Assembly: GCA_038065795.1 (NCBI GenBank)
Contig: JBBTQG010000003.1
Coordinates: 1-33,993, forward strand
Source of the DNA: Patescibacteria group bacterium
Lineage (GTDB): Bacteria > Patescibacteriota > Minisyncoccia > UBA6257 > HR35
DNA length: 33,993 nucleotides
Direction of reading: 5' to 3'
The notes beneath the pieces were generated by a model. That model searched no databases. It saw only the letters and a program-made list of their open reading frames with translations, and was not told the DNA's origin. The position numbers and the translations under genes were made by a program. This document shows, piece after piece, positions 1,769 to 33,936 of this stretch. The first letter of the stretch is position 1. Each line of letters begins with the position of its first letter.

Positions 1769-1791
1769 TGGCGGAGGAGGTGGGATTCGAA
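1769..1791 (-). repeat. Duplicated 3' end of tRNA-Ser(GCT) (att-like), with CCA
   Basis: 1771-1791 GCGGAGGAGGTGGGATTCGAA is identical to 1951-1971. The minus strand reads TTCGAATCCCACCTCCTCCG-CCA. Confidence 0.85.
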
Positions 1792-1917
1792 GGGGCAGAA
1801 GCCCCATTCATTTTTATTAAGCAATCGTTAATTATTTTTTTGAACATTACCTAGTTTGTTTTTGAAAATTTCTATTTATACAGATAGCATCAAAGTGGCT
1901 TCTCACCCATCATCGCC

Positions 1918-12101: not shown

Positions 12102-12172
12102 TTTACTTGATAGTATTATAATGCTAATCCTTGAACGGGCTTTAGCCCCATAACAAGAATTTATTTTTCAAT

Positions 12173-13841: not shown

Positions 13842-13857
13842 GATTATATGAAAATTA

Positions 13858-14338
13858 TAAGGCATAGAATAAGCCGGATTTTGTCTTGCCCCGCTTAGCG
13901 GGGTGAAGTAGTCATCTATCTAGCCATAAACTTGCGTTTATGGTCAAGCGGTACTCCCAGCACCATAAATGATGCTCGATACGACCTTGAACCCAGAACT
14001 CAAAAACCGCTACGGCAAAATTGCTTTTGCCGAGATGACGGTAGCAAAAGAATGAATGATTTCACACCCGTCAACTTTTCACCTTTTTTACTCCGCTAAG
14101 CGGAGTCGTAGTATTGTCTCTGTGATTTTTGTCAGACATTACTGCCTGCCTCCTTTTAGGGGGATTCACTCGCGCACCCTTTATACCATTATTACAAGGA
14201 GATATTACCGATAAAACAATGTGCCTTCATTAGATATAAAGGGTGCGCGATGGGTTTCCGGACTTTCCTCCTATCCGTAGTTTTTGTAAATTAAAAATTT
14301 ACAAAAACTACGGATAGGCGACCACTTTCCATACCTTA
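13858..14338 (-). ncRNA. rnpB: RNase P RNA (expanded, about 480 nt)
   Basis: Minus strand has GAGGAAAGTCCGG (P4 5' side), ACAGAGA and GGTGAAA conserved regions, and 3' GACAAAATCCGGCTTAT. P1 is TAAGGTATGGAA/TTCTATGCCTTA. Confidence 0.92.
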
Positions 14339-20921: not shown

Positions 20922-21036
20922 TTGTCCTGTTAGAAATGCCGTGGTGGTGGAATTGGAAGACACGCACGGTTCAGGGCTGTGTGTCCGCAAGGATGTGTGG
21001 GTTCGACTCCCACCCACGGCATTTCTAACGGGACAA
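20922..21036. mobile_element. CCCGTTAGAAA-family inverted-repeat element carrying tRNA-Leu
   Basis: TTGTCCTGTTAGAAAT (20922-20937) / ATTTCTAACGGGACAA (21021-21036), 15/16 match with one G-U pair. Confidence 0.75.
20938..21021 (+). tRNA. tRNA-Leu(CAG)
   Basis: GCCGTGG/CCACGGC + A; CACGG-TTCAGGG-CTGTG; variable arm; GTGGG-TTCGACT-CCCAC. Confidence 0.95.
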
Positions 21037-32396: not shown

Positions 32397-32480
32397 GCCG
32401 AAGTAGCTCAGTTGGTCATCCGTCAAAAGCATATGCATTTTGACGGACCCGCCAAAATGCGCAGCTTTTGGCGGGGAGCA
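32397..32480 (+). pseudogene. 5' part of a disrupted tRNA-Thr-like gene, with two hairpins inserted in the D-loop
   Basis: GCCGAAG-TA-GCTC-AGTTGGT [hairpins 32419-32447 and 32448-32475] GAGC-A. Confidence 0.8.
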
Positions 32481-32489
32481 ATTAAAAAA

Positions 32490-32750
32490 ATGCATTATAC
32501 TTATGTATTATTATTAAGTAATAAAAAATTTTACATAGGTTCGACAAGTAATTTGAAATTAAGATTAAAAGATCATAAAAATGGTCGAGTAAAATCAACA
32601 AGACAATTTTTACCGTTAGAATTAGTATATTTTGAGTGTTGTTTTTCTAAAACAGACGCAATAAAACGGGAGTATCAATTAAAGACTGGATTCGGAAGAG
32701 GGTATCTTAGAAGAAGATTGGAAAATTTTTTAAACAATACGCCGACCTAG
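32490..32750 (+). CDS. Small GIY-YIG nuclease (86 aa)
   Basis: YTYVL...FYIGSTSNLKLRLKDHKNG...LVYFE...AIKREYQLK; start re-called at ATG 32490; the stop codon lies inside tRNA-Thr. Confidence 0.92.
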   Translation: MHYTYVLLLSNKKFYIGSTSNLKLRLKDHKNGRVKSTRQFLPLELVYFECCFSKTDAIKREYQLKTGFGRGYLRRRLENFLNNTPT

Positions 32751-32813
32751 CTCAATTGGCAGAGCAACGGTTTTGTAAACCGTAGGTTCGGGGTTCAAGT
32801 CCCCGGGTCGGCT
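32741..32813 (+). tRNA. tRNA-Thr(TGT)
   Basis: GCCGACC/GGTCGGC + T; ACGGT-TTTGTAA-ACCGT; CGGGG-TTCAAGT-CCCCG. Confidence 0.95.
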
Positions 32814-32870
32814 ATAATATTAATTAAATCGCGAATAAAAAGATATAAAAACTAAAAAGGGCTTTAGCCC

Positions 32871-32890
32871 TTCGAATCCGACCTTCGGCT
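32871..32890 (+). pseudogene. 3' part (T-loop to discriminator) of the disrupted tRNA-Thr-like gene
   Basis: TTCGAAT-CCGAC-CTTCGGC-T. CTTCGGC pairs 7/7 with GCCGAAG at 32397, but not with the intact tRNA. Confidence 0.8.
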
Positions 32891-33231: not shown

Positions 33232-33296
33232 GTAAATGGGAAATAATTATTGGCGAGGTGTCGGAGTGTCGGAGTGGGGTACAAAGTGCCATTTTA

Positions 33297-33368
33297 GGAG
33301 GAGTGCGCCGAATTGGTAAGGTAGCAGTTTCTGCGCCCAAGGCGCATCCGTCACGGACGGAGAAAACT
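33297..33368 (+). pseudogene. 5' half of a relic tRNA-Ser(CGA)-like gene, with two hairpins inserted in the anticodon
   Basis: GGAGGAG-TG-CGCCGAATTGGTAAGGTA-GCAGT-TT-C[TGCGCC-CAA-GGCGCA TCCGTC-ACG-GACGGA]GA-AA-ACT. Confidence 0.6.
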
Positions 33369-33605
33369 ATGTATTATATTTATATAATTTATAGCAAAAA
33401 ATTAAATAAAAAATATGCTGGTATTACAAAAAATTTAAAGAAACGAATTTATGAACATAATCATAGTAAAGTGCCATTTACATCAAAGGCAAAAGATTGG
33501 AAGTTAATTTACTATGAAGCATTTCTAAATAAGCAAGATGCATATGCGGAAGAAAAATTTTTGAAAAGTGGAAAGGGCAGAGTTCGTTTAAAATATTTAT
33601 TATAA
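33369..33605 (+). CDS. Small GIY-YIG nuclease (78 aa)
   Basis: YIYIIYS...KYAGITKNLKKRIYEHN...LIYYEAF...AYAEEKFLKSG; start re-called at ATG 33369. Confidence 0.92.
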   Translation: MYYIYIIYSKKLNKKYAGITKNLKKRIYEHNHSKVPFTSKAKDWKLIYYEAFLNKQDAYAEEKFLKSGKGRVRLKYLL

Positions 33606-33659
33606 AATACCTTAACAGATATTTGGCGAGGTGCCGGAGTGGTTTAACGGAGCGGCTCG

Positions 33660-33768
33660 CCCCGTTAGAAAATGGAGGATTGGCAGAATGGTAATGCACT
33701 GGTTTCGAAAACCAGCGGGAGTAATCCCTTGCAGGTTCGAATCCTGCATCCTCCGTTTTCTAACGGGG
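33660..33768. mobile_element. CCCCGTTAGAAAA inverted-repeat element carrying tRNA-Ser(CGA)
   Basis: Perfect 13-bp IR at 33660-33672 / 33756-33768. Confidence 0.85.
33674..33755 (+). tRNA. tRNA-Ser(CGA), intact, nested
   Basis: GGAGGAT/ATCCTCC + G; CTGGT-TTCGAAA-ACCAG; V-arm GGGA/TCCC; GCAGG-TTCGAAT-CCTGC. Confidence 0.95.
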
Positions 33769-33896
33769 TAAAAAAACCGCGTCTTCAAAAAAGACTCGTG
33801 AGTTCGAATCTCACCCTCGCCGAATAAAAAATTAATTTGCTTAAAGGTTAGTTGGCAGATATAAAATAGGGCTTGCCCTTTCAAATCCTCCTCCCG

Positions 33897-33936
33897 CCAC
33901 ACAAAATTCCCATTTTAAAATGGGAATTTTGTGTGG
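33897..33936. repeat. Perfect 40-bp palindrome
   Basis: CCACACAAAATTCCCATTTT|AAAATGGGAATTTTGTGTGG. Confidence 0.92.

Follow-up and report, generated by a model that had tools for sequence, protein, structure and literature searches.

The DNA analysed here (the window, 33,993 nucleotides) represents contig C3 of a 581-kb Patescibacteria genome (32% GC, 56 contigs, 99.6% complete) that contains one tmRNA gene and 39 tRNA genes, of which only three encode the CCA. In an Rfam scan of the window, curated scores were reached by tRNAs and the RNase P RNA only, the latter being of bacterial type A (13854–14338, minus strand, 132 bits). Close to the left end of the window, on the minus strand between positions 2036 and 1769, lies an intact tRNA-Ser(gct) gene (1951–2036, detected with both ARAGORN and Rfam), the last 21 nucleotides of which (1971–1951, T54 to position 74) make up the first copy of a direct repeat. 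Directly behind the tRNA there is a 33-nt palindrome (1920–1952), not followed by a run of T, that serves as the apex of a long imperfect hairpin formed together with the next element, a diverged inverted copy of the tRNA 3′ end (1895–1921; both elements were recognised by sequence inspection). This inverted copy comprises a strand resembling the 5′ strand of the acceptor stem and a T-arm-like hairpin, with TGAGAA standing in place of the complement of the T-loop, and it is weak, reaching 8 of 12 pairs in an ungapped comparison. Next comes an AT-rich spacer (1806–1894) that ends in a conserved right-end motif, AAAATGAAT, which recurs on contigs C53, C56 and C30. The spacer leads into a GC hairpin, GGGGC-TTCT-GCCCC (1805–1792), the constant right terminus of the module, and the hairpin abuts the displaced original tail of a tRNA-Ser, which comprises the T-loop, the 3′ strands of the T-stem and the acceptor stem and an encoded CCA and forms the second copy of the repeat (TTCGAATCCCACCTCCTCCGCCA, 1791–1769). 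The core of the palindrome (ACTATCACTGATAGT, 1925–1947) resembles a pair of repressor operator half-sites, and a gene for an HTH_3 protein is found 360 nt from it, at 1355–1561.

The orphan tRNA end at 1791–1771 is identical to the tRNA-Ser(gct) end at 1971–1951 in all 21 positions, and the 145 nt separating the two copies match the longer of two size classes described below. The orphan continues with CA into an encoded CCA that the intact copy does not have; across the genome, two of eight orphans encode the CCA compared with three of the 39 intact tRNA genes, a difference that is not significant. Contigs from two RNA libraries match the flank and the orphan at about 87% identity (10 differences over 1715–1791), and past position 1791 they run into the reverse complement of the T-stem and variable arm of a tRNA-Ser. 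These contigs thus join the body of the tRNA directly to the flank, which indicates that related organisms have an uninterrupted tRNA-Ser at this place, and hence that the site 1 orphan is the original end of the gene and the DNA between positions 53 and 54 is an insert. The dprA loci of seven relatives have no tRNA downstream and so offer no empty site for a comparison by synteny. Contigs of two DNA and two RNA runs covering 1300–2400, in a fragmentary manner and mostly from other organisms, revealed neither an excision product or empty allele of the same strain, nor a joint across the module, nor any sign of its expression in this organism. The GC-rich stretch behind the orphan (1640–1768) is single-copy in the genome yet very deeply covered by contigs of other organisms from both DNA and RNA libraries, which points to a widespread conserved or repeated element.

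The first-pass annotation had reported three such fusions of a hairpin with an orphan T-loop in the window, each downstream of an intact tRNA, and sequence inspection together with a regular-expression search located all of them. The second junction consists of GGGCTTTAGCCC (32859–32870) followed by TTCGAATCCGACCTTCGGCT (32871–32890) and the third of GGGCTTGCCC with an additional T (33869–33879) followed by TTCAAATCC and, at its end, CCGCCA (33880–33899), both on the plus strand. ARAGORN places an intact tRNA upstream on the same strand in all three cases, the distance to the hairpin being 145 nt from the end of tRNA-Ser(gct), 45 nt from that of tRNA-Thr(tgt) and 112 nt from that of tRNA-Ser(cga), or 46 nt when measured from the older tRNA in which the last one is nested. 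A lone GGGCTTTAGCCC, noted earlier near position 12137, is likewise present (12137–12148); it lies between two minus-strand genes and adjoins no tRNA end. The pattern GGGC-N2-4-GCCC-N0-1-TTCRAAT matches three times in the window and not once in any of 100 dinucleotide shuffles. In the whole genome, the bare GGGC-N2-4-GCCC hairpin has 28 strand-instances (14 loci), six of which are directly followed by (N)TTCRA compared with about 0.23 expected from a background frequency of 0.008, so the junctions in the window are not a product of chance. Five of these six matches are real junctions (the three sites in the window, C30:617 and C53:6580), and degenerate variants occur behind the genes for tRNA-Ala, tRNA-Val and tRNA-Leu(taa), at C56:25684, at C4:8243 and, in the case of tRNA-Leu(taa), elsewhere on C56, giving at least seven junctions in the genome. 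An A-rich motif before the hairpin, represented by AAAATGAAT at site 1 and by AGATATAAAA at sites 2 and 3, recurs as well, and more than the hairpin alone is therefore common to the junctions. The hairpin does not have the appearance of an intrinsic terminator, as its 4–5-bp stem is followed by TTCGAAT with no T-run and separate terminator hairpins stand behind orphans. A three-copy repeat, AAAAT-GGGCTCCTGCCC-GCAATGCTACGC (C1:6864, C4:8292 and C32:1877, with two copies behind tRNA-Val genes), represents a variant of the hairpin to which no T-loop is joined.

At sites 2 and 3, both on the plus strand, the GC hairpin ends larger cassettes that consist of a GIY-YIG nuclease gene and a replacement tRNA, with matching 5′ stubs of older tRNAs upstream. 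Site 2 begins with the stub of an older tRNA-Thr (GCCGAAGTAGCTCAGTTGGT, 32397–32416) that covers positions 1–20 and ends in the D-loop. The cassette that follows contains two GC-rich hairpins at its left end (32417–32475, recognised by inspection), a small nuclease gene encoding 86 residues (32490–32750; Pfam PF01541, E 1.6e-15), an intact replacement tRNA-Thr(tgt) (32741–32813) with an acceptor stem unlike that of the stubs, a 45-nt AT-rich spacer with AGATATAAAA (32814–32858) and the hairpin GGGC-TTTA-GCCC, behind which stands the orphan, made up of the T-loop and the remaining 3′ part of the older tRNA-Thr. The acceptor strand of the stub pairs with this orphan around a tRNA-Thr that has a different acceptor, which means that the older tRNA-Thr lost its positions 21–53 to the cassette. 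Site 3 is more intricate. The 5′ stub of an older type-II tRNA (33297–33326; acceptor GGAGGAG and D-arm), with a second short stub nearby (33252–33268), is by our assignment probably the partner of the orphan at 33880–33899. A hairpin similar to those at the left end of site 2, CATCCGTCA, precedes the second small GIY-YIG gene (33369–33605, 78 residues). Farther downstream another older type-II tRNA (33625–33822) is split in its anticodon region by tRNA-Ser(cga) (33673–33756), the insert being flanked by 13-bp inverted repeats, CCCCGTTAGAAAA. A 46-nt AT-rich spacer (33823–33868), again with the AGATATAAAA motif, then leads to the hairpin GGGC-TT-GCCC and its T, and the orphan T-loop and 3′ end, degenerate in the T-stem strand, is succeeded by a terminator hairpin (33897–33936). 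The tRNA-Ala locus on C56 follows the same plan as site 2 without the nuclease gene, the Ala stubs pairing with each other and keeping G3:U70. Split or permuted tRNA genes of the archaeal type do not account for such arrangements: the Thr and Ala stubs lack positions 21–53, they enclose or adjoin a complete tRNA gene of their own type, and the RNase P RNA is of the bacterial kind. The earlier account of the junctions stands for the hairpin and the orphan end; it had overlooked the 5′ stubs that match the orphans, as well as the 21-nt repeat and the inverted copy.

Several further arrangements around tRNA genes were noticed in this genome. A 12–13-bp palindromic motif similar to CCCCGTTAGAAAT occurs as an empty palindrome or as inverted repeats in the window (20926–21033 and 33660–33769) and at C43:8330–8602, C32:5642 and C50:23819, and tRNA-Leu(cag), tRNA-Ser(cga) and a GIY-YIG gene are tightly framed by such inverted repeats, giving the impression that these genes had been dropped into the loop of the palindrome. 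At C32:8100–8330 there is an older tRNA-Glu(CTC) that is complete but for two insertions, the one in the anticodon loop being a whole second tRNA-Glu(ctc); the GC-rich motifs that bound these inserts, CCCGCCTGC and GGCGGGCAGG, recur at the tRNA-Ala and tRNA-Val stubs and at locus L066. In the region C40:16950–17400, a GIY-YIG gene and a new tRNA-Cys precede an older tRNA-Cys, which begins immediately behind the D-loop and bears a 30-nt double hairpin in its anticodon loop; this older gene represents a second fixed break point, at positions 20|21.

We consider it probable, at roughly 60%, that the junction of hairpin and T-loop is the right boundary of DNA inserted in a tRNA gene exactly between positions 53 and 54. 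The insert would begin with its own copy of positions 54–74 or, as at sites 2 and 3, bring a whole replacement tRNA, and in both cases the tRNA gene would thereby stay intact. The original T-loop and 3′ end would be pushed downstream and left directly behind the hairpin. In its minimal form the insert would be a non-coding module of about 110 or 180 bp, composed of the 21-nt repeat, the palindrome, an inverted copy tolerant of wobble pairs, the spacer and the GC hairpin, and site 1 is a canonical member of an apparently undescribed family of such modules. The suggestion of the first-pass annotation that the hairpin marks the end of an element is supported by these data, as the hairpin is the sole constant feature abutting T54 of the displaced tRNA end, at no fewer than seven junctions here and at 36 module-type loci elsewhere. 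Its companion suggestion, that the hairpin is a recombination signal, is plausible, with no enzyme being tied to the hairpin.

The loci in other organisms come from a scan of 185,579 species genomes with the pattern GGGCTTNNGCCC-N0-1-TTCGARTCC, which returned 90 stretches, 80 of which were examined. Thirty-six of the 80 are of the module type and are labelled as Falkowbacteria, Parcubacteria, Saccharibacteria, Patescibacteria group, 'bacterium' or, in one set with the same architecture, Gammaproteobacteria. The remaining loci, mostly from Solirubrobacterales and Thermoleophilaceae, look like conserved coding sequence and were set aside by eye. In these other Patescibacteria, modules stand beside at least 12 tRNA types. 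Where a same-strand tRNA is present in the flank (32 junctions), the orphan is identical to it in all 21 positions in 23 cases and in 11 to 20 positions in the other nine. The exact length of the repeat, as determined in 19 units with no internal mismatch, is 21 nt in eight, 22–24 nt in six and 27–73 nt in five, never less than 21 nt, with the longest repeats belonging to tandem units. The distance between the end of the tRNA and the hairpin clusters sharply: among 29 units it is 70–81 nt in 13 and 144–151 nt in another 13, the others measuring 107, 162 and 182 nt; three more modules, in genome G417, measure 140–144 nt. A terminator-like palindrome, with a sequence unrelated between units, lies behind the tRNA copy in these modules too, and a terminator hairpin is found behind many of the orphans. 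The distribution of the modules across the phylum is patchy: the strict junction occurs in one of 41 relatives, namely the genome studied here, and in two of 401 sampled genomes of the phylum, the present one included (four hits in G000 and three in G417), the reversed control pattern yielding two single hits. No Rfam family covers the module (window end and seven other loci, E up to 0.5–10), and the listings from literature searches included no description of it. We rate the modules as a new variant of tRNA-targeted insertion.

Some loci carry more than one module. Tandem units are present at L020 (two units of 181 bp) and L092, and in one array of G041, unit 2 and the third unit are separated by 8 kb of metabolic genes that include no integrase. 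The block sits inside an array of tRNA-Gln modules (L105, G041:C2:1095000–1106000), includes no recombinase gene and encodes a solute symporter, an asparaginase, an S51 peptidase, an aminotransferase, a GNAT protein, an AMP-binding enzyme and a class II aaRS-like protein. A direct comparison is offered by the orthologous tRNA-Gln loci L081 and L085, which are 99% identical in tRNA-Gln and 92% identical along the 1.2 kb that follow downstream. Their inserts, of 146 nt and 498 nt, respectively, are unrelated, and similarity resumes at the first base of the hairpin. The 498-nt insert holds a GIY-YIG gene whose stop codon overlaps the hairpin. This pair fits a hot spot bounded by the hairpin and is just as compatible with a hairpin that represents the resident edge of an older module; since it lies inside the block conserved between L081 and L085, the hairpin could belong to the resident side.

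Arrays of this kind, together with a repeat that spans the T-loop to the tRNA end, invite the idea that the junctions are ordinary attL/attR remnants, left by phages or islands that integrated in tRNA genes through a double-stranded attP and a tyrosine integrase acting in the T-loop and that were later almost entirely deleted. Williams reportedly described such a T-loop sublocation in 2002, in which elements cross over in the T-loop of a tRNA gene and regenerate its 3′ end, and the direct repeat at site 1 (1971–1951 and 1791–1771), with the tRNA kept intact, is of this classic type. The tandem arrays and the 8-kb island at a single site would be in keeping with it, the ssrA islands of Dehalococcoides being a comparable hot spot (PMC3146451). 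However, random deletion would hardly leave two sharply fixed sizes, to which 26 of the 29 units conform, the 8-kb island has no integrase, the junction pattern has no hit in 2.9 million viral contigs and the inverted copy goes unexplained, so we regard this origin as very improbable.

In the inverted copy, the segment that follows the palindrome can pair with the 3′ strands of the T-stem and the acceptor stem and with position 73. For 40 module tRNAs the best ungapped pairing averages 9.3 of 12 (8.1 when shuffled) compared with 7.96 of 12 (7.93 when shuffled) for 52 other tRNAs, and at least 10 of 12 pairs are reached by 15 of the 40 versus five of the 52; the inverted copy thus belongs to the module. 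GAGAA(C) mostly takes the place of the T-loop complement; in clean cases it forms a GAGA loop capping a T-stem-like hairpin. Over 301 aligned positions from 28 units, a G in the direct strand faces C 31 times, T 25 times, G 11 times and A three times, and a C in the direct strand faces G 122 times, A four times, T six times and C twice. Wobble G·T pairs number 30 versus six A·C pairs, an excess showing that base pairing is maintained for the tRNA strand alone, in the form of either RNA or single-stranded DNA. In most units, however, it is the other strand on which the GC-hairpin loop has a GNRA sequence, which counts against pairing restricted to the tRNA strand. When single units are folded, the inverted copy and the orphan form a 12–19-bp stem that has the GC hairpin near its tip; when the 3′ half of the tRNA is included, the inverted copy pairs with it instead of the orphan. 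The orphan is a better fit to the inverted copy than the tRNA copy is in two units (L045 and L089). RNAalifold recovered only the GC hairpin from 11 short-class units, because MAFFT failed to register the tRNA-specific segments.

Pairing that is strand-specific and preserved through wobbles raises the question of a small structured or cis-acting RNA. The module might encode a mimic of a tRNA minihelix, in which the inverted copy and the orphan close an acceptor-like and a T-like stem. Read-through, or a promoter located in the spacer, would produce this RNA, which would act on tRNA processing or as a decoy or guide and could itself ride on a mobile module. The GAGA-capped hairpins, the fixed lengths, the orphans that remain identical while the inverted copy drifts, the long stem with the GC hairpin at its tip and the terminator hairpins behind many orphans would all suit an RNA of this kind. 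It would, however, be present in only two of the 401 phylum genomes, matches no Rfam family and would have to be transcribed from behind a terminator-like palindrome; the RNA-library contigs, which came from other organisms, gave no sign of its expression, and the GNRA loop of the GC hairpin lies on the opposite strand. On balance an RNA function seems improbable to us. By eye, some units fit a candidate promoter in the spacer, with GAGAAC as the −35 box and a TATAAT-like box about 17 nt farther on.

Returning to insertion between positions 53 and 54, the sequences themselves establish the architecture, where the junction falls, the 21-nt repeat and the strand-specific pairing; beyond these, we infer a mobile module, a folded intermediate and an enzyme that acts on it. 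Our tentative proposal, which we hold with less than even confidence and which draws on analogy, is that the module moves by site-specific insertion at 53|54 by means of a folded single-stranded site. The CTX phage and the attC sites of integrons work through folded single-strand recombination sites. The module would travel as a (possibly circular) single strand, in which the 21-nt segment pairs with the inverted copy and creates a duplex look-alike of the corresponding segment of the tRNA gene, with the T-loop largely unpaired opposite GAGAA, the GC hairpin as the other arm and the palindrome as the tip. A recombinase would exchange the top strand at 53|54, replication would fix the insertion and cargo could be placed in the spacer. 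A single top-strand exchange at this point followed by replication would yield the observed order of parts, the arrays and the position of cargo in the spacer. Several observations speak against the proposal. No recombinase is linked to any module, and the inverted copy in the module of the genome studied here is weak (8 of 12). The modules beside different tRNAs of the G417 genome share the ends of their spacers, which the folded strand does not explain, as a fixed copy of positions 54–74 should tie a module to one tRNA type. Units L045 and L089 are the opposite of what it predicts, unless their tRNA changed later.

A less probable reading is that the module is a mini-element bearing a guide. 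Its inverted copy, as RNA or single-stranded DNA, would pair with the T-loop-to-acceptor segment of a chosen tRNA gene and direct a recombinase acting in trans, or the tiny GIY-YIG nuclease, to make its cut precisely at 53|54. The choice of the target would then be programmed by wobble-tolerant base pairing and could drift between tRNA types. An analogue is provided by the bridge RNAs of IS110 elements, in which the target is likewise chosen by base pairing. Three further candidates, namely fold-back repair, transposition with a 21-bp staggered cut and retrocopying of mature tRNA, each cover some of the features; none covers the hairpin and the inverted copy together.

As for the enzyme, integrase-type open reading frames are found neither in the modules of the window nor in the 8-kb island of G041. 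The 581-kb genome encodes a single tyrosine recombinase (on another contig, C10), two homologues of Y1 transposases and one reverse transcriptase, and contains no serine recombinase. Y1 transposases were considered, as they occur in all three genomes with modules compared with eight of 40 relatives without them; this link is too weak, related genomes not being independent samples. GIY-YIG proteins were considered as well. Of the eight matches to this domain in the genome, four sit immediately upstream of a tRNA gene, and in two of these four cases the hairpin ends the cassette. A GIY-YIG gene sits inside or beside the inserted segment at sites 2 and 3 and at L085 and is absent at site 1. The proximity to GIY-YIG genes that the first-pass annotation proposed to test is local only, at two of the three window sites and at L085: such a gene is found within 1.2 kb in only two of 84 loci examined (36 of them of the module type), and 80 metagenome loci that encode related GIY-YIG proteins yielded no junction. 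In nine of these 80 loci, the start of a tRNA falls between −9 and +39 nt relative to the stop codon.

These genes bring in the possibility that the junctions are homing scars. A GIY-YIG nuclease specific for the T-arm, of the SegB type, would cut module-free tRNA genes near the T-loop, and repair would copy the allele with the cassette, using the tRNA body and the segment from the T-loop to the flank as homology arms; modules with no open reading frame would be decayed cassettes, and the hairpin would be the cassette end and the transcription stop of the nuclease gene. The location of half of the GIY-YIG genes directly upstream of tRNAs, the hairpin at the end of two such cassettes and the stop codon overlapping the hairpin at L085 all agree with this scenario. 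So does SegB itself: the recognition sequence of the T4 enzyme spans 27 bp and includes GGTTCRANTCC from the T-arm (PMC2330249), and the enzyme cleaves within tRNA genes, where it drives homologous recombination that amplifies a tRNA segment in tandem (PMC13096335). On the other hand, the rarity of GIY-YIG genes near modules and the absence of the junction from related GIY-YIG loci argue against homing, which also leaves unexplained why the hairpin is constant across 12 tRNA types, why an inverted copy is present and why there are two fixed sizes; moreover, the rebuilt tRNA keeps an intact T-arm target. We therefore think homing unlikely to be the origin of the junctions.

tRNA genes are classic landing sites of mobile DNA. 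Here, landing in tRNA genes leaves a precise and repeatable structure: the cut falls at the first T-loop base, the tRNA end is repeated over 21 nt, a hairpin forms the terminus and the insert contains a strand-specific copy of the target. The hosts are bacteria whose genomes are tiny and whose tRNA genes are single-copy. If the folded strand or the guide proves true, the modules would represent a new system for site-specific insertion, with a universally conserved sequence as its target. Even if it is only a scar, the structure would explain the tRNA fragments, nested tRNAs and GIY-YIG genes that clutter the tRNA loci of Patescibacteria and confuse their annotation.

Among known systems, SegB from the tRNA cluster of phages T4 and T6 shares with our loci a GIY-YIG gene wedged between tRNA genes, a conserved T-arm motif as the target and tandem repeats of a tRNA segment as the outcome of its activity (PMC2330249; PMC13096335). 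SegB is a phage protein with a DNA-binding part, unlike the window proteins of 78–86 residues that have little beyond the catalytic domain, and the consulted passages on SegB describe neither a hairpin terminus nor a 21-nt repeat nor an inverted tRNA-end copy (PMC2330249; PMC13096335). Most modules, furthermore, have no nuclease gene nearby.

Integrative elements that target tRNA genes resemble the modules in combining an intact tRNA with foreign DNA behind it and with a direct repeat that begins in the T-loop and extends as far as the tRNA end, and in forming arrays at one site. The modules differ in measuring 110 or 180 bp with a fixed internal architecture that includes the inverted copy, in sharing one terminus among many tRNA types and in having no integrase, as far as the G041 island and the genome studied here show. 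The attP(+) site of CTX, used by XerCD, and attC sites are similar in being imperfect hairpins with structure conserved on one strand and an unpaired central region at the crossover, in an insertion that leaves both arms adjacent at one end and in cassette arrays with a shared sharp junction. The modules, in contrast, would insert in a tRNA gene instead of dif or attI and have a paired arm that copies this very target, and no IntI-type or dedicated Xer enzyme was identified for them. REP/REPIN sequences with RAYT and the miniature elements of IS200/IS605 cause no target duplication and have similar hairpins at both ends. They are comparable as short, non-coding, hairpin-ended and strand-specific repeats that spread within a genome, and Y1 homologues do occur in all three module genomes; the modules are distinguished from them by a left end that is not conserved, a right end formed by the GC hairpin and the presence of the 21-nt repeat.
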